A stretch of 42,841 nt of DNA from a virus. Taxonomy: Duplodnaviria; Heunggongvirae; Uroviricota; Caudoviricetes. The DNA lies in the IMG/VR virus record IMGVR_UViG_3300030019_000001; one strand, 5' to 3'. Shown piece by piece: positions 483 through 39,352 of the stretch. The notes below the pieces were generated by a model, which was not told the DNA's origin, searched no databases, and saw nothing but the letters and a program-made list of their open reading frames with translations. The position numbers and the translations under genes are program-made. Position 1 is the stretch's first letter. The number at the start of each line of letters is the position of its first letter.

Positions 483-737
483 ATGAAAAGATTAAATAAA
501 TTCAATGAGAATTTATTATTAAAAAAATACGTATATAAATACGATGATTATTACTTTTATATTGATGATGTTATTGGCGAAATGTTAGTATTGGACATAG
601 AATATGCTAGAACATTTTCAGAAAAAGAAATAAAATACTACGATATGGATAAAACTATCAATGAATATGATATGATATTGAATCAAGAAGATGAAGAAAT
701 AGAAATCACACACACATTTGAAAAAATAGAATTATAA
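483..737 (+). CDS. Hypothetical small acidic protein (85 aa from the ATG at 483). The track ORF 378-737 starts inside AT-rich promoter-like DNA that overlaps the divergent lysozyme start.
   Basis: Open frame; MKRLNKFNENLL... start; ATGA overlap region with the next gene. Confidence 0.4.
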   Translation: MKRLNKFNENLLLKKYVYKYDDYYFYIDDVIGEMLVLDIEYARTFSEKEIKYYDMDKTINEYDMILNQEDEEIEITHTFEKIEL

Positions 738-740
738 TTA

Positions 741-1391
741 ATGATAACAAATTTTAAAAATTTTAATATGAATGAATCTCTATCAAATTTTGATTTGAGC
801 AAATTGGTAACAATAATAGCAATCAATAAAGATCCAGAAGGTAACTGGATTTATAAGACAGACAACAGGATAGAATATATTCTACCAAAAGAACAAGCAG
901 GTAAATTGACATTGATAGATGACAAATTTGCAAACTTTGTAAACTCAGGACACCCAATAACTAAATATTTTGAAACGACTGATGGTAATATCATATCATA
1001 TGTTGCAAATTTCGCAGTTGATGCAGTGGCTTTAAGAGAGGGTAGAGTTTATCTGATAGAAAGGCAAGACGGTAGGGGTTGGGCTTTACCAGGAGGCTTT
1101 ATTGATGCAGGAGAAACACCACAGCAAGCCGTTCTCAGAGAACTAAATGAAGAAACAAAGGCAAAGAGTGATGATATAAAAAACATTGAACCTTTACCTA
1201 TGATTAGAACTAATGATCCTAGGGAAATAAACTTTTTTACATTTCCATTTGTCATTCACATAAAAAACACATCTGAACTATCATTTGATGATGATGCAAA
1301 AAGTGGAAAGTGGATGTTATTAAATAGGGCATCAAAATCACAATTAGCATTCACTCATCACAATGACATTCTAAAAAAAGTATCATTCTAA
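741..1391 (+). CDS. NUDIX hydrolase (possible mRNA-decapping or nucleotide pyrophosphatase type)
   Basis: Nudix box GGFIDAGETPQQAVLRELNEETKA (GX5EX7REUXEEXGU) preceded by REGRVYLIERQDGRGWALPGG. The N-terminus MITNFKNFNMNE carries the recurrent N-terminal motif. Confidence 0.8.
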   Translation: MITNFKNFNMNESLSNFDLSKLVTIIAINKDPEGNWIYKTDNRIEYILPKEQAGKLTLIDDKFANFVNSGHPITKYFETTDGNIISYVANFAVDAVALREGRVYLIERQDGRGWALPGGFIDAGETPQQAVLRELNEETKAKSDDIKNIEPLPMIRTNDPREINFFTFPFVIHIKNTSELSFDDDAKSGKWMLLNRASKSQLAFTHHNDILKKVSF

Positions 1392-2703: not shown

Positions 2704-3500
2704 TTCAATTTATTTATTTTATCCTGAGATTTTTTGATTGAAATTTCAGCAGACTTTATTCTATCTTGTTTCCAATTTATATTTCTTTTTTTCCAATTAT
2801 CAATTCTACTATCAACATATTCTTTATTTCCTTTTTCCCAACTTTCTTTTGTGTTGTTCTGTTTAGCATAAGAATCAGAACTCAATGTTTCCCAAGTAGT
2901 CAATAAATGCCTACCATATTCTTCTTTAGATAATAAAATAAATATTTCTTCATCAGTCAATTTAATTGATTCTGAAATTTCTTTTTCACAAGAAGAAATT
3001 ATTGTTTTGTCATATTCTATATCCTTTTGAAGTTTTTCAATTTTATTTAATTTCTTAATTTTTTCTGAATAAAGAGAAGTCAGTTCAGAATTGTTAGTTT
3101 GAGGTAAAGTAGTTTTTGTGATATATCTATAATGAGCTTTTTGAATATTATAACCACCTGCAATTATAACTTCAGTAGAGAAATCATGAAGAATACCATC
3201 TCTTTTTATTTCTGAAATAATCTCCAAATTTCCTTTGTTGGAATATCTAGTTCTCAAATTAACAAGTTTATCTGTGGGTTTAGTATATTTTTCAATTGAT
3301 TTAACCAAATCAAATATTAAATATAGTAGAGTATTTTCTTTTTGAAATTCTGTGAAATACCTACCAGTTTCTTCAAAAAAACTTTCTTCGTATTTAATCA
3401 GTAAATCCTCCAATGTTGGTTCTATTATAGTAATGATCTTTTCAATTAGCTCATTTTTATGATTCATAACCGAAAAACTATTATAATTTAGAATGCTCAT
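2700..3500 (-). CDS. Hypothetical protein (266 aa, K/E-rich, predicted coiled-coil segments)
   Basis: Long ORF with an ATG start; overlaps its neighbour by 4 nt. Confidence 0.5.
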   Translation of the reverse strand: MSILNYNSFSVMNHKNELIEKIITIIEPTLEDLLIKYEESFFEETGRYFTEFQKENTLLYLIFDLVKSIEKYTKPTDKLVNLRTRYSNKGNLEIISEIKRDGILHDFSTEVIIAGGYNIQKAHYRYITKTTLPQTNNSELTSLYSEKIKKLNKIEKLQKDIEYDKTIISSCEKEISESIKLTDEEIFILLSKEEYGRHLLTTWETLSSDSYAKQNNTKESWEKGNKEYVDSRIDNWKKRNINWKQDRIKSAEISIKKSQDKINKLK

Positions 3501-3585
3501 GATAATATTTTTTAATTATTAATTATATACAAAGATAATACTTAATCATGTGATAATCAAAAATGTTTTTATATTTTAAGAATTT

Positions 3586-4818
3586 TTAATCAATGTTACT
3601 ATTAATATACAAAGTCTCAACGTTTTTCAATTTTTTAGTTGACGTGGAGTCATCTTTATTATCATATATCACATCATTTTTCAATGAATTATCAACTTTT
3701 TTAGACTCATTATATAATTTTTCCATCACTAATTTATTATTTACTATAACATTATCTTCAAATAATTTTTCATTATTTAATTTATTATTTACTATAACAT
3801 TATCATCAAACAATTGTTCATTATTTAATTTGTTATCTGAAACTGCATTTTTATATAAATCTTCATTGGTTAATTTATTATTTACTATAAAATTATCATC
3901 AAATAATTTTTCATTGTTTAATTTGTTGCTCACTAAAACTTTACCGTCAAATAATTGTTCATTGATTAATTTGTTATCTGAACCTATATTTTTATATAAA
4001 TCTTCATTAGTTAATTTATTATCTAAAATTGTATTTTTATATAAATCTGCATTAGTTAATTTGTTGGTAGAATCTATATTTTTATATAAATCTGCATTAG
4101 TTAATTTGTTGGTAGAATCTATATTTTTATATAAATCTTCATTAGTTAAATTGTTGGTAGAATCTATATTTTTATACAAATCTGCATCAGTTAAATTGTT
4201 GGTAGAATCTATATTTTTATACAAATCTTCATTCACTAATTTGTTATCTGAACCTATATTTTTATACAAATCTTCATTCACTAATTTGTTATCTGAACCT
4301 ATATTTTTATATAAATCAGCATTTATTAATTTATTATCTGAACCTATATTTTTATATAAATCTTCATTTGTTAATTTGTTGACTGAATCTATATTTTTAT
4401 ACAAATCACTATTAGTTAATGAATTATCTATTTTATTATTATTGTATAATATTTCATTTTTTGGAGTTTTAATTATATCTATATTATTAAATAGTGATTT
4501 ATTACCTGGTGTTTTAATCACTGATACATTATTAAATACAATTTCTTTATTTGGTGTTTTATTCCTTTCTACAATCAATTCAGATTTTCCAGTCACATCA
4601 TCATTTACACCAAATTTATACATGGATTTATTTGGAGTATTGGTTCTTCCTGTGACAATCTCAGAATAACCTGTAACATCACCCAAATTTTTTATTCTGG
4701 TTATTTTTGAAACTGGTTGAGTATATACAGTTTCTTTATTCGGTGTTAATCCTAATAGTCCATGATTATTAACAATAATTTTATCAATTACATTATCATT
4801 TTTACTTTTTTTACCCAT
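3586..4818 (-). CDS. Tandem-repeat protein with about 20 copies of a 15-aa unit (consensus L-T-N-E-D-L-Y-K-N-I-D-S-T-N-K) plus degenerate N- and C-terminal repeats
   Basis: Translation shows NEDLYKNIGSDNKLV / NADLYKNIDSTNKLT repeated. The DNA has 45-nt tandem repeats. Confidence 0.7.
   Translation of the reverse strand: MGKKSKNDNVIDKIIVNNHGLLGLTPNKETVYTQPVSKITRIKNLGDVTGYSEIVTGRTNTPNKSMYKFGVNDDVTGKSELIVERNKTPNKEIVFNNVSVIKTPGNKSLFNNIDIIKTPKNEILYNNNKIDNSLTNSDLYKNIDSVNKLTNEDLYKNIGSDNKLINADLYKNIGSDNKLVNEDLYKNIGSDNKLVNEDLYKNIDSTNNLTDADLYKNIDSTNNLTNEDLYKNIDSTNKLTNADLYKNIDSTNKLTNADLYKNTILDNKLTNEDLYKNIGSDNKLINEQLFDGKVLVSNKLNNEKLFDDNFIVNNKLTNEDLYKNAVSDNKLNNEQLFDDNVIVNNKLNNEKLFEDNVIVNNKLVMEKLYNESKKVDNSLKNDVIYDNKDDSTSTKKLKNVETLYINSNID
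3633..4470. repeat. Coding 45-bp tandem repeat array (about 18-20 copies, most perfect around 3990-4400)
   Basis: Repeated ...tctatatttttatataaatct(g/t)cattagttaatttgttggtagaa... units are visible in the sequence. This produces the spurious antisense ORF 3593-4669. Confidence 0.8.
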
Positions 4819-7610: not shown

Positions 7611-7893
7611 ATTTAACCAACTAAATGAATCAGATGAAATATCATACAATAAATCATTAGGATATGATAACTCAATGTTTGATAGTCTATCTGAATTGTA
7701 TAAATTATGGACAGACGCTGAAGGCTTATCTCATTTTTCAGCGGATGAATACGGATCAGAAGATTTGACAGATAAACAAATAGATTATTTAGAAAATTTT
7801 AATGATTTTTTGGAATTAACTCAAGACTTTGAACAAGATTATCATGAAAATGGTTATGCTTTAATTAAAAAAACAAAAAAATTTAACTTATAA
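7597..7893 (+). CDS. Small acidic protein ending ...KKTKKFNL (family A C-terminal cassette); the N-terminus MKINKFNQLNE contains an internal KFN remnant
   Basis: ORF; C-terminal cassette. Confidence 0.5.
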   Translation: MKINKFNQLNESDEISYNKSLGYDNSMFDSLSELYKLWTDAEGLSHFSADEYGSEDLTDKQIDYLENFNDFLELTQDFEQDYHENGYALIKKTKKFNL

Positions 7894-7999: not shown

Positions 8000-8887
8000 T
8001 TATTTTTTATTCATATGAAAACAAATCTCGTTTAACCAACCACTTTTATATGATTTAGAATACGCACTAATAGATTTCATATAAAATTCAGATCTAGTCT
8101 TATATTTTAATGCTTCTATTTGACATAATTCTTTTGTCCAATAACCATTTGGTTTTACTAATGGTGTCATATGCAAACATATTTCTTTTAACCATTTATT
8201 TTTTAATGAAATTGTATATGCTGATGCTGATTGTTTTTTAAATTCAACTTTTGTATTAAATTTATTTGCTTCTATTTGACATAATTCTTTTGTCCAATAT
8301 TTTTTACCACCTGTTCCTCCTGTTTTACACTTATTTAAAATTTTCCAATCATTATTTTTATATTTATTAACATAATCCTCTTCTAATATTTTTGATAAAT
8401 AAACATCAATATATTCACTTAATTTTTTAAATTTATAATTATTATTTTTTTGTATATGTTCATAAACTGAGCCTTTTCTTAAATGTTCATTAAATCGTCT
8501 ATCTAAATCACAAGTCAATCCAATATATGCATAGTTATCAGAAAATTCATAAACATAAATACATCTTTTATATAAATCACCCATACACTTCATATGTGAG
8601 CATATTTCATCTATCCATCCATATATTAATGATTTACCATAAATATAACTTGAATTTTTCCTAAATTCATTTCTACTATTAAACTTCAAAGATTCTTTTT
8701 GACAAAAATCTTTTGTCCAGATATATGATTTATTTTTTCTCATATGAGCACAAACATCAAATATCCAATTATTTCTAATTGAGATTCCATATACTTGTTT
8801 ACATTTTATCCTAAATTCTTTTTTAGTTTTATATTTTAATGCTTCTTCAGTGCATTTTTCAATAGTCCATATTTTTTTATCTATCAT
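8000..8887 (-). CDS. GIY-YIG family endonuclease (homing-endonuclease-like) with two N-terminal and two C-terminal ~43-aa W.(K/E).C..E(A/S)LK(Y/F)..R.EF.......Y.....W..EIC.HM repeats
   Basis: Core CIYVYEFSDNYAYIGLTCDLDRRFNEHL (GIY...YIG...R...E). Repeats WTIEKCTEEALKYKTKKEF..., WTKDFCQKESLKFNSRNEF..., WTKELCQIEANKFNTKVEF..., WTKELCQIEALKYKTRSEF... Confidence 0.8.
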   Translation of the reverse strand: MIDKKIWTIEKCTEEALKYKTKKEFRIKCKQVYGISIRNNWIFDVCAHMRKNKSYIWTKDFCQKESLKFNSRNEFRKNSSYIYGKSLIYGWIDEICSHMKCMGDLYKRCIYVYEFSDNYAYIGLTCDLDRRFNEHLRKGSVYEHIQKNNNYKFKKLSEYIDVYLSKILEEDYVNKYKNNDWKILNKCKTGGTGGKKYWTKELCQIEANKFNTKVEFKKQSASAYTISLKNKWLKEICLHMTPLVKPNGYWTKELCQIEALKYKTRSEFYMKSISAYSKSYKSGWLNEICFHMNKK

Positions 8888-15386: not shown

Positions 15387-17540
15387 TCACAGAGAAGAAT
15401 CTTTACCACCATCAATCAAAGTATAAAGTAATGGAGGGTTATTTGGTCCAGGTAAAATCACATCTACACCAGAATCATTAACATCACCTAAATAACTACC
15501 ATTCAATCCATTCAATGAATCATCAACACCGCCGTTTAGTAAATTCCAAAAATTTTCCGTTGTATTACCAGATAAAATTGTTAAAGGAACTGGCAATCTT
15601 GATTTTCTATCAGCTCCAATATAAACCAATTCAATTGTTGAAAAATACAAAAGAGGATCAGAATTTTTATCGATATTAGTTCCCAAATTAAATAATTTAA
15701 GAATAAATTCATTATTCTCATTTTCATATAATATTCCAGTTGCATAATTTCTAAAAAAATCATCTAGTACTAATATTTCTGCGTAAGATCTACATATATA
15801 CTTTCTAACATTATCATTTTTTTGAATATACCAATCATATGATTCATTAATATAAACTTGATATAGAATATCTGAGATATTTAACAAACCATCTATATTT
15901 TGAATATAAATTATATCAGTAGCAGGGAAAAAAGGAAAAGAAGAAGGTTTTTCAATTATCATTTCAGTATCATAAACACTATAAATTAAAGATTTTCCAG
16001 TAATTGTATTTCCTGAAACATTAACATATGTATATTCTTTAAAATTATTCAATAATCCTCCTTGAGTGTATATAATTCTAATTCTATCATTATCAGTATA
16101 TTGACATGTAAAACCAGTAAGTAAAAACTGATTGTACAATGAATAATCATATGTAAAACCACTAGGCTCAAGTCTATTTAAGTTATCAAACAATTTATAT
16201 CCAATATATTGATTATGAGTATTAAATGTATAACCTATCCAATTTTCATTATCATTTAATGATATTGTTAATCCATCATAATCGAAATATCTATCATAAT
16301 CGCACATTTTTGCAGTAAAAACTACATTCAAATAATTAATGTCATAACTACCTATTTTAATATCATAATAATCAGAATAAGGAGTATTTGATGATAATTT
16401 ATCAAGAGCGTCATCCCAGCTTATTCCTATATTAAGATTCTCAACAGAAAATGCTTTATTTTTTAAGTCATTTATAACTCTATTTGGAATTGTTTCTTCT
16501 AAAATTAAACATCCATATCTGATATCTTTAACAAAAGTATTTAATGTTAAAACATTCACAGAATTTGAATCTATAGTATAACCACTATAAATATTTAATT
16601 TAATATAATCTCCTATAATACAATCAAAATTTTGTGAATAAGGAACTGAAGTAAATCCTTTAACTACATTATTACTAATTTGACTGGTAATACCAGTAAA
16701 TTCAGAATTAATAGTTAAACCTGATCTAATAATATATGAATCATGATGATAATCTATTCTAACAATCTCAGAAGATAAGTACAAACTATTAACATCAAAT
16801 TCAATTTCAATATATTTTTCAGCATTTGTATTTAACTGTTTTCTTGCAATATCATAATCCGTAAAAAAAATTTTAGATGTGCTTGATGAATCTGAATATG
16901 AACGCTCTAGATCATATTTCACCAAATTTTTAAGAATAAAAGATTTTCCTTCAATAAAATATTTAGCTTCTCCTGTTATTGGAAAATTGTAACCAACATT
17001 CAGCAAAAAAAATTGTTTATCAGAATTATTACCTAGTTTTACACTACAGCTAAATTTATCAGATTTTTCTCTTGTGTTCAAAACATTATAATTTATTAAA
17101 AAATTCTTATTCGAAACTATGTAAATATCATTTTCAGACTCACTTCCAGATTTTTGGTCTTTCAACAAAATCAACTGGCCTGGTTTAATATTAACTCCAT
17201 TTATTTGTGTCCATTGTTTAGATATATCAATATGAGTATCTGCTGCAACATCAACAAATATTATATTTTTAAGAACTCTATCAATTACATCATATTCATT
17301 ATACATATTAACAATTGAATAACCATCTCCTGTTAATAAATTTTCTTTATTATAAATATCTTCTAAACTATTAATATATGTATATGTAACTCCAGTTAAA
17401 TATTTATTAAATCTAAAATAAATATCACCTACTGCAATAAATTTTTCTTCATCATATTTCACTGAACGAGTTTGTTGAACAAATGTTCCATCATCCTGTT
17501 TAATCCAATCAAATTTTCTAGATTTTCTATTTTTTTGCAT
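15387..17540 (-). CDS. Large hypothetical protein (717 aa), Asn/Tyr/Ser-rich, possibly structural
   Basis: Long ORF with an ATG; no recognisable catalytic motif. Confidence 0.55.
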   Translation of the reverse strand: MQKNRKSRKFDWIKQDDGTFVQQTRSVKYDEEKFIAVGDIYFRFNKYLTGVTYTYINSLEDIYNKENLLTGDGYSIVNMYNEYDVIDRVLKNIIFVDVAADTHIDISKQWTQINGVNIKPGQLILLKDQKSGSESENDIYIVSNKNFLINYNVLNTREKSDKFSCSVKLGNNSDKQFFLLNVGYNFPITGEAKYFIEGKSFILKNLVKYDLERSYSDSSSTSKIFFTDYDIARKQLNTNAEKYIEIEFDVNSLYLSSEIVRIDYHHDSYIIRSGLTINSEFTGITSQISNNVVKGFTSVPYSQNFDCIIGDYIKLNIYSGYTIDSNSVNVLTLNTFVKDIRYGCLILEETIPNRVINDLKNKAFSVENLNIGISWDDALDKLSSNTPYSDYYDIKIGSYDINYLNVVFTAKMCDYDRYFDYDGLTISLNDNENWIGYTFNTHNQYIGYKLFDNLNRLEPSGFTYDYSLYNQFLLTGFTCQYTDNDRIRIIYTQGGLLNNFKEYTYVNVSGNTITGKSLIYSVYDTEMIIEKPSSFPFFPATDIIYIQNIDGLLNISDILYQVYINESYDWYIQKNDNVRKYICRSYAEILVLDDFFRNYATGILYENENNEFILKLFNLGTNIDKNSDPLLYFSTIELVYIGADRKSRLPVPLTILSGNTTENFWNLLNGGVDDSLNGLNGSYLGDVNDSGVDVILPGPNNPPLLYTLIDGGKDSSL

Positions 17541-30894: not shown

Positions 30895-31311
30895 TTAATT
30901 AATTTTTTTCCTTAAATAATTAAAAACAATTTCAAAAAATATCAGTTTAATTGAAAATGCCAACATAACAAACCAAATAGATGTATTCAATGTGATTATA
31001 ACAGATGCAAGAATCATAGTTATTTCAGATATAAACCAAAATAAATGCCATGCATCAGTAAACACAACAAAAATAGTAGTACTTCCTATGAATTTTTCTC
31101 CATTTAATGGATTGGCATTTTTATATTTATTGAGAGACCCCAATCCTTGTTCCCAAAATTTTGGATTTAATTTATATTTTAAATATAATCTTGACTTGTA
31201 AAATAAATTAGGAGAAGATGATATATCAGTTATAGATTTAGATATACCAGATATTAATAATAAAAAAAGTATTATTAAAATGTTTAAAATTGCTGAAGTA
31301 GTTAGTATCAT
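30895..31311 (-). CDS. Predicted multi-pass membrane protein (138 aa) embedded between two group B paralogs
   Basis: Hydrophobic segments MILTTSAILNILIILFLLLISGI and ITMILASVIITLNTSIWFVMLAFSIKLIFF; its start overlaps the KFNI-TGA of the upstream gene. Confidence 0.5.
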   Translation of the reverse strand: MILTTSAILNILIILFLLLISGISKSITDISSSPNLFYKSRLYLKYKLNPKFWEQGLGSLNKYKNANPLNGEKFIGSTTIFVVFTDAWHLFWFISEITMILASVIITLNTSIWFVMLAFSIKLIFFEIVFNYLRKKIN

Positions 31312-31727
31312 ATGTTAAATTTATTTGCTTGTCTTTTTATATTAATATCATTTATTATTTTTTTTATATCACCAGGAATATTTCCATAAATTGTCATCTG
31401 AGAATTTGTGTCTACTATATGACTAAATTTTATTCTTTTCAATCTCAATGTTAAGTATATATGTTTAAGATCATAATTAAATCCATAACTTCTACCGTTT
31501 ATAATTCCTTTATGATGTTTATTTGAATGTATAAAATTTGTAACACCATTTATATCATCTGTACATTTATTACAATTAAATTCAACAATGTTATTGTTGA
31601 AATTAAATAATTTGAAAATGAAATTTCGTATTGAATCTTCATGACTATCAAAGTAATCTACAATATCATCCAATACCAATGTGACTTTATCATCTGAGTT
31701 CTCGAATAATTTGAATTCTGTTATCAT
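31308..31727 (-). CDS. Terminal-cassette group B protein (MITEFKLFENSDD ... EFNCNKCTDDING ... TIYGNIPGDIKKIINDINIKRQANKFNI)
   Basis: Paralog of 30456-30893. Confidence 0.6.
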   Translation of the reverse strand: MITEFKLFENSDDKVTLVLDDIVDYFDSHEDSIRNFIFKLFNFNNNIVEFNCNKCTDDINGVTNFIHSNKHHKGIINGRSYGFNYDLKHIYLTLRLKRIKFSHIVDTNSQMTIYGNIPGDIKKIINDINIKRQANKFNI

Positions 31728-31741
31728 GCTGATATATATAA

Positions 31742-32920
31742 TTATTTGAATTTGTTTTTTAATACTTGATATTGAGATTTAACAGAATAATAAGACCTAT
31801 TTAATTTTTTAGCACAACATTTTATTCCTATATGATAATTTTCAATTAAAAAAATAATATCATCTTCTGGCCATGAATTTTTTCTTTTTTTTGCTATCAT
31901 ATGAGAGCATATATCTTTATACCATTCATTTTTAATTGCAGATGCTGCTGCACTACTATTGTTTTTTAGAAAATCATCTTTATAAATATATTTTGATGCC
32001 TCGTATTTACATTTTTCATATGTCCAAAATTTAGCAGATCCTCCTAATGTACTTTTTTTGTTAGTATTTAATAATTTCCAATTATTATTTTTGTATTCAT
32101 TCATATAATATTCTTCCAATTTCTGTGCTTCTGATTTATTAATATAGTCAGTTAATTGTATCAATTTATATTTATTGCTTGCTTTTTGTAAATGTTTGTA
32201 AATTGGACCTTTTTTAATATGCTCCTGCTCTCTAATTTTTATATTATATGTCAATCCAATATATGCACAATTATCATCAAATTCAAAAGCATAAATACAT
32301 CTAAATTCTTTACTACCAATTTTTATCATATGTGAACAGATATCATTAGATATATTATTTACATTTGAAAAATTATAAGCACCTCTATATTTTTTTTGAA
32401 AATCATTTCTACTATTACACTTTAATGCTTCTTCTTTGCATTTATCATAATTCCAATAATTATTAACATAAGTCATATGATTACAAATTTTTTCTATCCA
32501 TTTTTTTGAAATAGATATTCTATATGCACTAGCATCATTTTTTCTAAAATCAGTTCTGGTTAAATATTTTAATGCTACTTCTTGACATTTTTCTATTGTC
32601 CAGTAATTATTAGGTTTATGACTTAAATTCATATGAGAACAAATACTATTTAGCCAATTATTTTTTAATGACTTATTATATGCAGTTGCTTCATTTTTTT
32701 GAAAATCTGATATAGAATTATAATTTAATGCTGCTTCTTGACATTTATTGTGTGTCCAATGTCCTGGAGTATTAATTTTATATTTCATATGTGAACAAAC
32801 AATATTTAAATATTTATTTTTTACACAAGCATTATATGCTAAATTATCTAATTTTTTAAAATCACTTCTATATTCATATTTTAATGCTGCTTTTTGACAT
32901 ATTTCTAATGTCCATTTCAT
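31742..32920 (-). CDS. GIY-YIG family endonuclease (homing-endonuclease-like) with four N-terminal and one C-terminal ~43-aa W..E.C..(A/E)AL.Y..R.DF.K...AY.....W...IC.HM repeats and a C-terminal helix-turn-helix-like tail
   Basis: Core FRCIYAFEFDDNCAYIGLTYNIKIREQEHIKKG. Repeats WTLEICQKAALKYEYRSDF..., WTHNKCQEAALNYNSISDF..., WTIEKCQEVALKYLTRTDF..., WNYDKCKEEALKCNSRNDF..., WTYEKCKYEASKYIYKDDF.... Tail NSWPEDDIIFLIENYHIGIKCCAKKLNRSYYSVKSQY. Confidence 0.8.
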   Translation of the reverse strand: MKWTLEICQKAALKYEYRSDFKKLDNLAYNACVKNKYLNIVCSHMKYKINTPGHWTHNKCQEAALNYNSISDFQKNEATAYNKSLKNNWLNSICSHMNLSHKPNNYWTIEKCQEVALKYLTRTDFRKNDASAYRISISKKWIEKICNHMTYVNNYWNYDKCKEEALKCNSRNDFQKKYRGAYNFSNVNNISNDICSHMIKIGSKEFRCIYAFEFDDNCAYIGLTYNIKIREQEHIKKGPIYKHLQKASNKYKLIQLTDYINKSEAQKLEEYYMNEYKNNNWKLLNTNKKSTLGGSAKFWTYEKCKYEASKYIYKDDFLKNNSSAAASAIKNEWYKDICSHMIAKKRKNSWPEDDIIFLIENYHIGIKCCAKKLNRSYYSVKSQYQVLKNKFK

Positions 32921-33089
32921 AGTTTTTATTGTTTATTTTTTAATAATTTATTATATATTATAAAACAATTAATGTTTTTGATCATATAAAATAAAGTTAA
33001 ACTATAAATATTTTGATTTATGAAATAAATTCATTATATTTGTAAAAATATAAACTTAAAAATAAAATAAAATAATATTAGATAAATAT

Positions 33090-36000
33090 ATGAAAATTGC
33101 TCACTTAGCTGATGTTCACATTAGAAACCTTGAAAGACATGAAGAATATAATGATATTTTTCAAAAAATAATAAAAAAATTACGCAAAATTACACCAGAT
33201 AGAATTGTTATTGTTGGTGATTTATTTGAAAGTTATATTGAAATTTCAAATGAAGCTGAAATTATAGCTGGAAATTTCTTAAATGAATTATCAAAAATTG
33301 CTAAAGTTATAATAGTTCGTGGTAATCATGATATTCGTAAGAAAAATTTAAATAGAATCGACAGCATAGAAACTGTAGTTAAACTAATGAATAATCCAAA
33401 TGTTACTTATTATGATAAAACTGGATTTTATGATGATAAGCAAGATAACAATTTTGTTTGGGTTGTTTATGAACACTCAGATAAAGACAACGATCCATGG
33501 AAAAATATTAAAAAATATGATGGTAAAATATATATTGGGTTATTTCATGACCCAGTTTTAAATGTAACATCAAATACTGGTAAAGTTTTTAATGATGCAA
33601 ACAAGTACAAAAATATGAATTATTTTAATAATAATGATTTTGTGCTAATAGGTGATATCCACAAGCGTCAGTATTTAAGAAATGATAAATCTGCTGCATA
33701 TTGTGGCTCAACTATACAACAATCATATGGTGAAACAATTGAAAATCATGGTTTTTTATTATGGGATATAAAATCACCATCAGATTTTGATGTCACTGAA
33801 TATGATATTGACAATGAACACACTTTCATAAATCTTTATATTGATGAATCATCAGATTATGACAATTTAAATTTGTCTGCTGATAAAATTGGAACAGATA
33901 CTGAAATTAAAGTTCATTGGAAAGAATATTCATCAATTATAAATACTGTTAATGAAAAGAAAATAAGAGATTATATTAAAAATAAATTTAGCACAACTAA
34001 AGTTATTTTTGAAAAAGTTTATTTATACACAGATATATTATCATCAAAAATGCTATCAGAATCAATTGATTTGACTGATACTGAAACACAGAAAGAAATA
34101 TTTAATGAATATTTAGAAGAGCAAAAATACAAAAAAGATGATATTGAATCTATTCTTAAAATTGATGATATAATAAATAGTAGAGTTCAATTGGTAGAAT
34201 GCTTAAAAAATACTGAATGGAGTATTGATAAATTCTGGTTTAGTAATTTTAAATCTTATGGAGATGATAATGTTATAGATTGGGCTGATATTAATGGAAT
34301 TGTACAAATTCATGGAGAAAATCAGGAAGGTAAAACAACTATTTTAGATGCACTTACTTATATTCTTTATGGTAAGACTACGACAACATTAAGTCCTGAA
34401 AAATTTGGAGATTCAAGATATATAAATAACAAAAGAGATTTAGATTATGTTAATGGTGGTGCAATTATTAATTCAAATGGTAATAAATTCGTTATTCAGA
34501 GAAAGACAGAAAGAGTTTGGAATAAGAATCACACGGCATTAACAAGCTGTCCTACATCATTGGATTTTTATAAAAGCGAGAATATTTGTGAAGAAAATAA
34601 ATTAACAGATGAAATTAAAGCTAAGACTCAAAAAGAATTGGACTCTATTTTAGGAGATTTGAAAGATTTTATTAGATTGTCATTCACTAATGCTGATAAT
34701 TTAAATGATTTATTATCAGAAAATAGAAGTGTATTTATGGATAACATCATCAGAGATGCTGGTTATGATATTTTTGAAATTAAATTGAATGAATTTAAAG
34801 AATATAAAAAAGAATTAGTAGAAGAAAAATTAATAGTAAATATTCAAGATTCTGAATCTCGTGTGAAAGAATTGAATACTGAAATTATTGATATTAAAGA
34901 TATTATTGATACTAATAATTCTGATATTGAGAAGCATGAAAAAGAATTATCTGATTATAATACAGATAGAGATAATTTAAATAAAAAATTAAATAATATT
35001 GATTTATCAATGTTAACTTTTAATGAAGATTTAAATTTGAATACCATCAACAATTATGAATCTAAAATTGAAGAATCTAAAATTCAAAGCACAATTTTAG
35101 ATAGAGACATTGATAAATTACCTACTGAATTCGATTCATCTAAACTTGATGAATATAAAATTAAATTGAAGCAAACGAACTTGAAAATTTCTGAACGAAA
35201 AGATGAAATTTCAAATTTGAAAACTTCATTATTAGAATCTGATAATAAAATAGATAAAGTTAATATTAAAATTGATGAATTAAAACAATCTGAAATTAGA
35301 AAAATATCATCAAAAATAAATGCAAATGATTTACAAATTGAAGTTATTAAAAATAATAAATCTAATATCATAAAGGATGAAATAAAAAAAATAACATCAG
35401 AAATTCAAGAATTAGAATTAAATTTAAAAGAATTATCATCTAATATAAAATTATTACAAAAAGATGGAGTTAACGCTAAAAATTCAAATGAGGAATTAGA
35501 TAAAGAAATAGAAACATTCAAAAATTCAAAATCTTGTCCTAGCTGTGGTAGAGATTATGATAAAAATGATCCAAAATATTCAGAACACTTAGCTCATTTA
35601 GAAGATAAAATTAAAAGTCTTGAAATTAAAAAAGAACCAAATTCTTTGATAATTAAAGATTGTATATTAAAGTATAAAGATTTAAAAAATGAATCTATTG
35701 AATGTAATACAAATATTCTTAATTTGGAAGACATGAAAAAAAGGTTAATTCAAGGAGAATACCCTGATGATATATTATCTAAATTGAAAGAAATTGGTAG
35801 CAGTAAGAAGTTGACTCAAGACAATTTAGATTTAAATAAATTAATAGAAAAAATTGAGAATAACATATTTGATGAATCTGAAACATTAAATGAAAATATT
35901 GAGAAAGGGAAAGAACTAATAAAAAACATAGAAAAAGGCAAATTAGATACATCAATTGTAATAAAAAATATTGAGTCTGAATTGAAAAATTTTAATGTTG

Positions 36001-36845
36001 AAGGTATAGATGATGATATTTCAATTGAGGAAACTAAGAAAGATAATTTTGAGTTAAGAAACAGAAAAATGTCAAATAGAGATAATATTATTTTATCAAT
36101 CGAAAATTTTAATTTTAAAATAAAAGAACTAAAATTAGAAATAGAAAAATATCAAGAATATAAAGTTAAAATAGATGAAAATAAAATTATTCAATTATCA
36201 ATAGATGATGTGGATAATAATATTAAAGTCGTTAAAGAACAAATAAAAAATTTATCACAAATAAATATAGAAATGGAAAAAAATATTATACTCAAAGAAA
36301 ATGATATTTTTATAATTTCAACTAAGATAAAAAAATATTTAAAACAAAAGAAAAAAGATGAGTTATTAAAGGAGTATCAAAAATGTATTAGTCGTGATGG
36401 ATTACCTACTTTTTTATTGAAAAAGTCTATTCATTTAATTAATAAAGAATTGAATGAATTATTAATAAATGTTAATTTTACATTATTTTTTGATGATAAT
36501 TTAAATTTAAGGCTTAGTGCAGATGATAGGCTAGATTCCAGTCAAAATGCAATTGAAAGTTCTGGAAAAGAAAGAACATTTTGTGCTCTTGCATTGAAGA
36601 TAGCATTACGACAAATAAATGTCAAATCAAAATCTACGTTTATTGTATTGGATGAAATTATGGGTAAATTAATTGATGGTAAAAAAACAAAATCTGTTCA
36701 GCAATTTTTAGAATTTATTGATGAGTTGAAAAATAAAGTAAATAAAATTGTAATTATTGAACAGGTGCATAGTATAAATTTTGATGCATCAATTGAAGTT
36801 GATAAAGACGAAGAATTAGTTTCTCACTTAGAATTAGTTTATTAA
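33090..36845 (+). CDS. Single-chain Mre11/SbcD nuclease fused to a Rad50/SbcC ABC-ATPase with a coiled coil and CxxC zinc hook (1251 aa)
   Basis: Phosphoesterase motifs HLADVH, VGDLFE, RGNHD, GLFHD, IGDIHKRQ in the first ~230 aa. Walker A GENQEGKTTILDALTYILYGKT. Long K/E/N-rich coiled coil with zinc hook SKSCPSCGRDY. Signature-like SSGKERTFCALAL, Walker B FIVLDEIMG, H-loop VIIIEQVHS. Confidence 0.8.
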   Translation: MKIAHLADVHIRNLERHEEYNDIFQKIIKKLRKITPDRIVIVGDLFESYIEISNEAEIIAGNFLNELSKIAKVIIVRGNHDIRKKNLNRIDSIETVVKLMNNPNVTYYDKTGFYDDKQDNNFVWVVYEHSDKDNDPWKNIKKYDGKIYIGLFHDPVLNVTSNTGKVFNDANKYKNMNYFNNNDFVLIGDIHKRQYLRNDKSAAYCGSTIQQSYGETIENHGFLLWDIKSPSDFDVTEYDIDNEHTFINLYIDESSDYDNLNLSADKIGTDTEIKVHWKEYSSIINTVNEKKIRDYIKNKFSTTKVIFEKVYLYTDILSSKMLSESIDLTDTETQKEIFNEYLEEQKYKKDDIESILKIDDIINSRVQLVECLKNTEWSIDKFWFSNFKSYGDDNVIDWADINGIVQIHGENQEGKTTILDALTYILYGKTTTTLSPEKFGDSRYINNKRDLDYVNGGAIINSNGNKFVIQRKTERVWNKNHTALTSCPTSLDFYKSENICEENKLTDEIKAKTQKELDSILGDLKDFIRLSFTNADNLNDLLSENRSVFMDNIIRDAGYDIFEIKLNEFKEYKKELVEEKLIVNIQDSESRVKELNTEIIDIKDIIDTNNSDIEKHEKELSDYNTDRDNLNKKLNNIDLSMLTFNEDLNLNTINNYESKIEESKIQSTILDRDIDKLPTEFDSSKLDEYKIKLKQTNLKISERKDEISNLKTSLLESDNKIDKVNIKIDELKQSEIRKISSKINANDLQIEVIKNNKSNIIKDEIKKITSEIQELELNLKELSSNIKLLQKDGVNAKNSNEELDKEIETFKNSKSCPSCGRDYDKNDPKYSEHLAHLEDKIKSLEIKKEPNSLIIKDCILKYKDLKNESIECNTNILNLEDMKKRLIQGEYPDDILSKLKEIGSSKKLTQDNLDLNKLIEKIENNIFDESETLNENIEKGKELIKNIEKGKLDTSIVIKNIESELKNFNVEGIDDDISIEETKKDNFELRNRKMSNRDNIILSIENFNFKIKELKLEIEKYQEYKVKIDENKIIQLSIDDVDNNIKVVKEQIKNLSQINIEMEKNIILKENDIFIISTKIKKYLKQKKKDELLKEYQKCISRDGLPTFLLKKSIHLINKELNELLINVNFTLFFDDNLNLRLSADDRLDSSQNAIESSGKERTFCALALKIALRQINVKSKSTFIVLDEIMGKLIDGKKTKSVQQFLEFIDELKNKVNKIVIIEQVHSINFDASIEVDKDEELVSHLELVY

Positions 36846-37711: not shown

Positions 37712-39352
37712 TTATAAATGGATTAGTTGTTGTACCCCTGTTATAGTAGGTATACTATTTACATTTAATGCAATTTCAATAATTCCATCAATTTCTAATA
37801 ATGATGTATTTAAATGAGTTGAATCTCCACCTATATTACTTAATTTGATTTCATCTATAAAATGTCCCCATCTTGGACGATCTGTTGTTCCTGTTACAGA
37901 AATTGTTTGTGGTATAGTCAATTCAGAATTGAATGTTTGTCCTGATTGGTTATAACCTTTACTGTAATTTACATAATAGTTTAATGCAAATGTTCCTGAA
38001 ATTGCTGTACCATTATGACTCCAATGTGTGTGTAAATATATATCAGAGTTTGGTAAATAATCATGTGGCATATGATATGTAATATTATCTATCTTATCAT
38101 TAACTTGAAATGTATAATTAAGTATATTAGTTCCTCTTAACGGTGATAATGAAGGAGCAGTAGATCCACCAACCCTTGGTATTATCTGACCGATTAAATC
38201 TTTATATCCAAATGTCGGTGTTGTATTGTCTATCATTATACCTGTTCCTGACAACTTTGGTAATATTAAATTACCATTTAAATTTAATAATGAATTATGA
38301 TATGTTAATCCACTTTCAACATTTACATTTGGAGATGATACATTTAATGTAAGTAGTCCATAATTCGTTGTACCATTTAATGATACTGTTCCTGAACTTC
38401 CTGATGTTCCATTGGTTCCTGAACTTCCTGATGTTCCATTGGTTCCTGAACTTCCTGACGTTCCATTCGTTCCTGATGTTCCATTTGTGCCTGAACTTCC
38501 TGATGTTCCATTTGTTCCTGACGTTCCATTTGTTCCTGACGTTCCATTCGTTCCTGATGTTCCATTTGTGCCTGAACTTCCTGATGTTCCATTTGTTCCT
38601 GATGTTCCATTTGTTCCTGACGTTCCATTTGTTCCTGACGTTCCATTCGTTCCTGATGTTCCATCTGTTCCTGAACTTCCTGATGTTCCATTCGTTCCTG
38701 ATGTTCCATCTATTCCTGATGTTCCATCTATTCCTGATGTTCCATCTATTCCTGATGTTCCATCTATTCCTGATGTTCCATCTGTTCCTGAACTTCCCGA
38801 TGTTCCATCTGTTCCTGAAATTCCTGATGTTCCATCTATTCCTGATGTTCCATCTATTCCTGAAGGACCAGGAGCACCATTTAATGATACATTCCAAAAA
38901 TTATATGTTCCGCTACCAATAGATGAAGTAATATTTGAAAATATTTCACCTGTTATTTTATTATATGATAATATATAATTTATCATTAAATTTGATGAGT
39001 CATGTGTTATTATAATATCTTGTCCTGTAGATAATGATAAATTAGGCTCAACAAAAAATGATATTGTACCTCCTGTTGATATTTCTAATGTATTATTCGA
39101 AAATGTAGTATATTTATCTCCACTTAATCCATTTGTTCCTGAACTTCCATTTGTTCCTGAACTTCCATTTGTACCTGATGTTCCATCTGTTCCTGATGTT
39201 CCATCTGTTCCTGAACTTCCATTTGTTCCTGAACTTCCATTTGTTCCTGATGTGTGAGAAATGCCAGATAGAGATTCTAAATATGAAAAATTACCGTCCA
39301 TTTCGGTTATAGTTAATCTTTCTCCTTTTTGTTGTCTTAAAATTAAACTCAT
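37712..39352 (-). CDS. Collagen-like triple-helix repeat protein (two G-X-Y blocks, about 45 and about 150 residues, of GT(S/N/D)G(S/T)SGT type) with a C-terminal globular domain of about 230 aa
   Basis: GTNGSSGTDGTSGTDGTSGTNGSSGTNG... and GPSGIDGTSGIDGTSGISGTDGTSGSSGTDG... runs. Repeats at the DNA level generate four spurious overlapping ORFs. Confidence 0.8.
   Translation of the reverse strand: MSLILRQQKGERLTITEMDGNFSYLESLSGISHTSGTNGSSGTNGSSGTDGTSGTDGTSGTNGSSGTNGSSGTNGLSGDKYTTFSNNTLEISTGGTISFFVEPNLSLSTGQDIIITHDSSNLMINYILSYNKITGEIFSNITSSIGSGTYNFWNVSLNGAPGPSGIDGTSGIDGTSGISGTDGTSGSSGTDGTSGIDGTSGIDGTSGIDGTSGIDGTSGTNGTSGSSGTDGTSGTNGTSGTNGTSGTNGTSGTNGTSGSSGTNGTSGTNGTSGTNGTSGTNGTSGSSGTNGTSGTNGTSGSSGTNGTSGSSGTNGTSGSSGTVSLNGTTNYGLLTLNVSSPNVNVESGLTYHNSLLNLNGNLILPKLSGTGIMIDNTTPTFGYKDLIGQIIPRVGGSTAPSLSPLRGTNILNYTFQVNDKIDNITYHMPHDYLPNSDIYLHTHWSHNGTAISGTFALNYYVNYSKGYNQSGQTFNSELTIPQTISVTGTTDRPRWGHFIDEIKLSNIGGDSTHLNTSLLEIDGIIEIALNVNSIPTITGVQQLIHL
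38400..38880. repeat. Coding 9/18-bp (G-X-Y) tandem repeats of the collagen-like gene (the major block; a minor block is at about 39121-39255)
   Basis: ggaacatca/ggaacgtca/ggaacatcagg units repeated. Confidence 0.8.

Follow-up and report, generated by a model that had tools for sequence, protein, structure and literature searches.

A probable free-standing homing endonuclease gene in an AT-rich phage genome, with its GIY-YIG nuclease domain inside an array of 43-residue repeats

The gene at positions 31742..32920 (minus strand, stop codon 31742-31744) of IMG/VR virus record IMGVR_UViG_3300030019_000001, a stretch of 42,841 nucleotides referred to below at its full length as the window, is probably a free-standing homing endonuclease gene of a large AT-rich phage. 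It lies in the divergent spacer upstream of a gene for a fused Mre11-Rad50 (MR) protein, and it encodes a 392-aa protein in which a GIY-YIG nuclease domain is embedded in an array of 43-aa repeats and followed by a C-terminal tail with a predicted helix-turn-helix (HTH) fold. The element is of a known kind with an unusual architecture: the behaviour of the gene is ordinary, and the repeat array is the interesting part.

The gene was identified from the list of open reading frames (ORFs) and from Pfam and PHROG searches. Pfam GIY-YIG (PF01541) matches aa 208-279 of the protein with 28.5 bits against a curated cut-off of 22.6, in an alignment spanning model positions 3-75 of 78. The catalytic core (32063..32305, minus strand, aa 206-286) carries the motifs CIY210 and AYIG219-222 together with R230, H234, E269 and N285, and Y210, Y220, G222, R230, E269 and N285 are invariant across an alignment of 64 homologous sequences. 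We take the equivalents of these six residues in I-TevI to be Y6, Y17, G19, R27, E75 and N90, and that of H234 to be H31. With its active-site residues intact, the nuclease looks catalytically competent. In an AlphaFold2 model of the protein (mean pLDDT 92.9) the core forms strands at residues 206-214, 218-224 and 251-255 with flanking helices, all at pLDDT > 90. Foldseek gave a weak match to the UvrC GIY-YIG domain (TM 0.51, probability 0.57, E 2), and no match at E < 1 when the full 392-aa model was compared with the PDB. A PDB sequence search with the whole protein returned nothing meaningful, and NCBIfam had no match for this protein or for the second GIY-YIG protein of the window, encoded at 8000..8887.

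The initial annotation had described the ORF as a GIY-YIG endonuclease with four copies of a 43-aa repeat before the core and one after, and had noted the same architecture, in other copy number and order, at 8000..8887. Pfam and a hidden Markov model (HMM) of the repeat bear out this description, the arrangement being 4+1 repeats in the first protein and 2+2 in the second. Both proteins match phrog_20046 (E 4.3e-60 for the 392-aa protein and 1.4e-59 for the paralog), a profile that holds the whole family and that PHROGs labels as unknown function. The 392-aa protein is basic (pI 9.4), and its gene does not differ from the genome in GC content. In a public gene call (P0001) this protein has 348 aa, starting at M45 and leaving out repeat 1. 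Since repeat 1 is 84% identical in the ortholog from genome L005, M1 at 32920 is the likelier start.

The history of the insertion site was followed by searching loci around relatives of the MR gene with the window proteins. The MR gene (33090..36845, plus strand, 1251 aa) fuses a Mre11/SbcD-type phosphoesterase to a Rad50/SbcC-type ATPase (Pfam Metallophos, AAA_29 and SMC_N; PHROG SbcD/SbcC) and is 38-85% identical across the phage group; it is the conserved gene that anchors the site, and the target may lie in its region. On the other side lies o139 (31308..31727, minus strand), which tblastn finds at 70% identity at positions 7421-7840 of L004. The site stands empty in the four nearest genomes (L004, L007, L008 and L009), whose MR gene is 85% identical in amino acids and 85-87% in DNA: there the o139 ortholog is followed by 160 bp and then by the MR ATG, with clean junctions (in L004, o139 ends at 7840 and MR runs from 8001). 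In the window the left junction, as placed by the alignment with L004, falls in the 14-nt gap (31728..31741) that separates the stop codon of the nuclease gene from the start codon of o139. Within the divergent intergenic region between the nuclease and MR genes (32921..33089), DNA homology to the L004 spacer picks up again only in the last ~60 nt before the MR ATG. From these two junctions the cassette measures about 1.3 kb. The nuclease gene is thus stand-alone and intergenic, between o139 and MR, and outside any intron or intein. An Rfam scan of the window found no families and no intron RNA, and no tRNAs were found in the window, indicating that no group I intron is present.

Seven more distant genomes have the gene intact at this same site, adjoining MR in L001, L003, L005, L024, L027 and L031, and in all occupied sites it is divergent from MR. 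L005 (MR 68% identical) has a nuclease of 392 aa with 4+1 repeats and a tail, 69% identical to that of the window, while L001/L002 (MR 62%) have one of 391 aa and L003 (MR 57%) one of 344 aa with 3+1 repeats and a tail. Shorter, tail-less proteins with 2+1 repeats are found in L024/L025 (252 aa, MR 39%) and L027/L028 (248 aa, MR 39%). L031 (MR 40%) has a nuclease whose best segment is 49% identical, and the distant L010 (MR 40%) has nothing at the site. In L006 (MR 59%) the site holds a 204-aa ORF (553..1167, minus strand) with four repeats and neither nuclease nor tail, which looks like a decayed copy. The presence/absence comparison that the initial annotation had proposed therefore gave a gene missing from the closest relatives, present in more distant ones and decayed in L006, so that synteny is not conserved everywhere, though the gene is faithful to one site. 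Intact, shortened, decayed and empty states at a single site are what the life cycle of a homing endonuclease predicts.

The L006 ORF could be read either as a decayed endonuclease or as a stand-alone DNA-binding protein, and this bears on a different view of the gene, in which it is a decaying or domesticated homing endonuclease that acts mainly by binding DNA, could repress the shared divergent promoter, and has a nuclease of weak or no relevance. I-TevI represses its own promoter. The position of the gene directly at a divergent promoter region, its many putative DNA-binding modules, and the existence of repeat-only relatives both at the same site in L006 and elsewhere agree with such a role. 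We nevertheless regard it as very unlikely, since no GIY-YIG catalytic residue is damaged or varies among homologs and the ORF, which encodes a basic protein, is of full length. A repeated DNA motif resembling an operator was not identified, in a region where promoter scanning is uninformative because the DNA is so AT-rich (the sigma-70 promoter and terminator scan was uninformative at 22% GC).

Comparison of the nuclease with its neighbour suggests horizontal movement of the gene into this one site, on the strength of protein identities. Over 246 shared columns the nucleases of six genomes are 56-70% identical in all pairs and the MR proteins 38-68%, the latter falling to 38-43% overall, and the two identities correlate with Pearson r 0.48 over 15 pairs drawn from few taxa. 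Relative to the window, the nucleases of L024 and L027 are 57-61% identical and MR is 39% identical overall (45-53% in its globular domains). The nuclease is in this sense too similar across the deepest splits, which suggests transfer between lineages into the same site. DNA identity to L004 drops on the o139 side of the insertion (o139 78%, o145 68% and o143 84%, against 87% for MR), placing the cassette at a boundary of divergence.

It is also conceivable, though unlikely, that the gene is a resident accessory nuclease, inherited vertically, co-regulated with MR from the divergent promoter and working with the MR enzyme, and that it was lost in the L004 clade. Such a nuclease might make the breaks that start recombination-dependent replication, or might degrade host or competitor DNA. 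Its position and divergent orientation by MR are the same in at least 7 diverged genomes, its GC content is that of the genome, no co-conversion tract is seen, and in the nearer genomes its identity is close to that of its neighbour (70 vs 68% and 58 vs 63%), all of which agrees with a resident gene. The gene is, however, dispensable in the closest relatives, where the empty site is clean, and it has left a nuclease-less remnant in L006. Repeat number and the presence of the tail vary between the supposed orthologs, and nuclease identity holds at 57-61% where that of the neighbour falls to 39%. Furthermore, only 5 of the 78 family loci examined in IMG/VR lie near an MR-like gene, and a second, different copy stands elsewhere in the window and is absent from all sampled relatives.

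Several observations weigh against the interpretation of the gene as a homing endonuclease gene. The same site is occupied in many diverged genomes and, among the nearer ones, divergence roughly tracks that of the neighbour, so that the gene may instead have been inherited vertically and lost cleanly once, in the L004 clade. There is no co-conversion tract, MR being uniformly about 87% identical to L004 up to the cassette; this is a weak test, the true donor being unsampled. No immunity polymorphism was seen at the 5′ end of MR either: carriers and non-carriers hardly differ over its opening 90 nt and, if the target lies there, nothing obvious protects the carrier. The nuclease domain is internal rather than N-terminal as in the Seg proteins, I-TevI and I-BmoI. 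The repeat does not need the nuclease, since repeat-only proteins exist, some representatives of protein clusters being too short to hold anything besides repeats. Lastly, Foldseek found no match at E < 1 in the PDB for a model of repeat 5 plus the tail.

If the gene is a homing endonuclease gene, as we favour, the repeats and tail would bind an extended DNA site within the o139/MR spacer, or close to it, in a cassette-free genome, each repeat module providing its own contacts through two variable helices, its second and third. The single GIY-YIG active site would then be positioned to nick first one strand and then the other, close to the empty site in a relative infecting the same cell, and recombinational repair from the carrier genome, possibly through the adjacent MR enzyme, would copy the ~1.3-kb cassette into that site. 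By analogy with I-TevI and I-BmoI, the protein is probably a monomer with one active site tethered to putative DNA-binding modules. With these enzymes it shares the catalytic Tyr, Tyr, Gly, Arg, His, Glu and Asn at similar spacing and a C-terminal HTH; unlike them, it is not intron-encoded, it has putative DNA-binding modules on both sides of the nuclease, it lacks a zinc-finger linker, and its HTH is probably Myb/SANT-like.

The closest parallels in genomic behaviour are SegA-SegG and the cyanophage enzyme F-CphI, likewise encoded by free-standing phage genes in intergenic spacers between conserved genes and sporadic among related phages. The Seg proteins, free-standing GIY-YIG enzymes of T4-type phages, have an N-terminal nuclease and C-terminal NUMOD-type modules (PMC2988022). 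The window protein resembles them in joining a GIY-YIG catalytic domain to modular DNA-binding parts, which are putative here, and it would be expected to spread as they do, by double-strand break repair in mixed infection. It differs from them in the placement of the nuclease at aa 206-286 of 392, inside the 43-aa repeat array, and in having no NUMOD, none being found in a Pfam scan of the protein.

The repeats were located by a regular-expression scan and then by a small HMM. Repeats 1 (32786..32914, aa 3-45), 2 (32630..32758, aa 55-97), 3 (32474..32602, aa 107-149), 4 (32327..32455, aa 156-198) and 5 (31898..32026, aa 299-341) were each found by both methods, and all five lie on the minus strand. 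Their pattern in the 392-aa protein is W-T-x-E-x-C...F...A-Y...W-L-x-x-I-C-x-H-M, and the consensus of the unit is W..E.C..EA.KY...R..F......AY..A..NGW...IC.HM. The best ungapped 43-aa self-match of the protein has 24 identities, compared with a mean of 11.0 (sd 0.9, maximum 14) in 200 shuffles. Spacing between repeats has a mode of 52 aa, and repeats within the 392-aa protein are 42-56% identical. Between the window protein and its L005 ortholog, repeats 1-5 at corresponding positions are 84, 67, 72, 49 and 79% identical, against 40-58% for non-corresponding pairs; each position of the array therefore keeps its own identity. In the AlphaFold2 model the unit is predicted to fold into four short helices, which a beta bridge of a single residue closes off. 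Across 834 copies from 122 proteins the conserved positions are W1, C6, A10, K12, Y13, F19, A26, Y27, W35, C40, H42 and M43, and the most variable ones, 20-24 and 28-31, correspond to helices 2 and 3 flanking a Ser/Gly turn.

A profile search of 1.84 billion cluster representatives gave 9,609 proteins at E <= 1e-3 and 7,277 at E <= 1e-10, with up to 18 repeats per protein. The unit thus occurs in thousands of protein clusters of phages and bacteria, where it travels with nucleases and helicases. The position of the GIY-YIG domain varies across the family from near the N-terminus to the C-terminus, almost anywhere in the repeat array. In P0109 and P0170 it is replaced by a REase_MTES_1575 nuclease domain, and in P0159, P0240 and P0244 the repeat is fused to SF2 helicase domains (ResIII/DEAD/Helicase_C). 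All the domains to which the repeat is fused act on DNA, and from these associations it is probably a modular unit for DNA binding. A more specific proposal can be put forward tentatively, as a possibility well short of an expectation: that the 43-aa unit is an undescribed modular DNA-binding repeat whose arrays, 3-18 copies long, determine both the length and the sequence of a DNA site, and which is attached to GIY-YIG domains at any array position, to PD-(D/E)XK-type REase domains or to SF2 helicases, or occurs alone. A DNA-binding role would account for target finding by a large class of nucleases and would enlarge the small set of known DNA-reading repeat arrays by a new type; were each unit to read a short DNA step through helices 2-3, the array would be a new natural scaffold for long, re-targetable recognition.

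In several respects the array resembles those of TALE, zinc-finger and tandem Myb proteins: it is a tandem unit of fixed period (52 aa, which is also the period of the Myb repeat) in 3-18 copies, its variability is focused on a few helix positions, and it is fused to nucleases. In contrast to TALE arrays, the repeats are only 42-56% identical within the 392-aa protein and have no small code; they have no detectable sequence similarity to Myb, and their DNA binding is putative. A TALE-like small residue code was considered and rejected, positions 28, 29, 31 and 32 showing 459 combinations among 571 repeats.

The repeat has no family in the Pfam copy, NCBIfam or PDB searched. A Pfam scan of 100 single repeats found no consistent family (DUF7667 appeared in 2/100, below threshold), and a PDB search with the repeat profile gave nothing meaningful. 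Comparison by hhalign detected no relation to the tail (probability 0.7%) or to Myb repeats (probability 1%). No description of a 43-aa repeat of this kind was found in the literature, although its absence is not thereby proven. The repeat may already be covered by Pfam PF26058, an accession that is precomputed for a few of the homologs.

An opposing view of the array is that the repeats do not bind DNA at all, and instead bind protein, RNA or metal or serve as a scaffold, the target being recognised by the tail and the nuclease domain. It concerns the repeats only and overlaps the other readings of the gene, so the likelihoods given here to the alternatives do not add to 1. In its favour, the repeat has no sequence match or significant fold match to any known DNA-binding domain, the tail is not always available, being absent from paralogs and some orthologs, and the conserved C6, C40 and H42 could mean metal binding. 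C6 is, however, replaced by V, I or L in about 11% of copies, as expected of a core residue rather than a metal ligand. A further candidate DNA-binding domain is lacking in many family members. The repeat is fused to DNA enzymes in every case, 3-18 copies at a fixed 52-aa period match known DNA-tracking arrays, and the top Foldseek matches to repeat plus tail, although not significant, are tandem HTH proteins aligned over 85-116 columns. On balance, repeats with no part in DNA binding appear quite improbable.

The 51 residues after repeat 5 (aa 342-392) form a basic tail (pI 9.8), which the initial annotation had singled out as an HTH-like segment with the motif W.EDD..FL...Y..G..C.AK.LNRS..SV. 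The motif is present, and structure prediction agrees with the suggestion: the tail is modelled as an HTH-type three-helix domain (31745..31879, minus strand, aa 348-392) with helices at 352-364, 366-373 and 377-391. The three helices appear at pLDDT > 90 in the full model, and a second model, of repeat 5 plus tail, has a pLDDT of 91. The bundle superimposes on Myb/SANT domains. In structure comparisons the tail was matched to the Myb domain of Cef1/Cdc5 (7.1; 64, 8.2 A), the GcrA DNA-binding domain (6.9; 45, 2.7 A), the R2R3-Myb of WER (6.6; 62, 9.3 A), a small-terminase HTH (6.4; 43, 1.1 A), the SANT-like domain of CASP8AP2 (6.3; 46, 1.5 A), RADIALIS (6.0; 46, 1.7 A) and c-Myb R1 (5.8; 46, 2.4 A). 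The best single-domain Foldseek matches, which were not significant, are homeodomains and a Myb-like domain (TM ~0.55-0.63).

Sequence comparisons of the tail point in the same direction at low significance. Pfam Myb families are matched below threshold by 2-4 of the 17 homologous tails (E 0.005 or worse), Myb_DNA-binding by 4 of the 17 (E >= 0.005), and the tail of the 392-aa protein itself has no Pfam Myb match. Against a small alignment of Myb repeats, hhalign gave a probability of 31% (E 5e-4) with the W, G and L-N-R-S/T positions in register. A PDB sequence search with the tail profile gave nothing meaningful. The aromatic positions of Myb correspond to W348, C367 and Y382 in the tail, which thereby differs from Myb/SANT domains such as those of c-Myb, Cdc5/Cef1, RADIALIS and CASP8AP2 in having Cys and Tyr at the second and third conserved tryptophans. 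Taken together, these comparisons indicate that the tail is probably Myb/SANT-like. It is limited to the closest relatives of the 31742..32920 gene.

Beyond the MR locus, the family uses many insertion sites, the present sub-lineage keeping to a single one. Relatives are encoded by 382 stretches in IMG/VR, where several contigs carry two copies. Members are found in Vibrio schizoT4-like phages, Rhizobium phages, BcepSauron and megaphage contigs, and as isolated genes on Shewanella and Vibrio chromosomes. Up to 6 places are matched per record in Rhizobium and Vibrio phages, and in one Rhizobium phage a copy lies between the genes for a dCMP deaminase and a helicase. The members matched in GenBank phage records are all labelled 'hypothetical protein'.

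Two further candidate endonuclease genes are found in the window, which the initial annotation had called rich in selfish endonucleases; the comparison with relatives fits that description, both genes being absent from the closest of them. The paralog at 8000..8887 (minus strand, 295 aa; Pfam, repeat HMM) has 2+2 repeats and no tail, and is about 40% identical to the 392-aa protein in the family alignment. None of the sampled relatives has it at this site: in L014-L016 a stretch of 47 bp separates o98 from the methyltransferase-like o182, which comes next, and in L013 o130 is followed directly by o182. The other gene, at 26290..27183 (plus strand, 297 aa), is probably what the initial annotation had called an HNH endonuclease. 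It matches PHROG 559 (HNH endonuclease) at E 2.4e-6 and contains an LDH...N...N motif, with no Pfam match. In L004 about 10 bp stand in its place (blastn gap, window 26284-27170), and it is likely a third mobile endonuclease cassette. As all three are absent in the nearest relative, the candidate endonuclease genes are indels; three such genes in 43 kb show where the genomes of related phages differ, and where DNA is probably exchanged.

The GC content of the window is 22-29%, and it encodes a DnaJ protein, a collagen-repeat protein, a NUDIX protein and the MR fusion, most other ORFs being without a match. Its relatives are viral contigs in IMG/VR, reaching 235 kb, that carry Phage_lysozyme, IS605 TnpB, IF3 and ribbon-helix-helix (RHH) genes, and on account of these phage-type genes the window is read as part of a large phage genome. 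A giant eukaryotic virus, considered because of the low GC content, collagen-like protein, DnaJ and MR fusion, was dropped since the relatives carry phage-type genes.

Other differences from the relatives were noted near the MR locus. To the left, o138 (30895..31311, minus strand), a hydrophobic protein of 138 aa encoded between o145 and o139, is lacking in the L004 clade, in which o145 lies directly beside o139. The o139 and o145 proteins are themselves paralogs (~32-36% identical) sharing MITEFKIFE...ANKFNI. Downstream of MR, the region 36846..~39650, with two small ORFs and a gene for a 546-aa collagen-triple-helix-repeat protein (37712..39352), is without a counterpart at that position in L004, homology resuming about 2.8 kb further in the window. 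A 56-aa gene overlaps the MR start in L006, L027 and L028, and the L027 and L028 copies have weak RHH matches. L003 carries another mobile element in the MR neighbourhood, an IS605-type TnpB at 3448..4729, which is split over two ORFs (HTH_OrfB_IS605/OrfB_IS605 and Cas12f1-like_TNB) and separated from the 3′ end of MR by about 1.5 kb.

Most large ORFs of the window, including those of 1417 aa (19911..24164) and 717 aa (15387..17540), have no Pfam or PHROG family. The same holds for a 410-aa ORF at 3586..4818 (minus strand), which overlaps almost fully with a 358-aa ORF on the opposite strand (3593..4669, plus strand).

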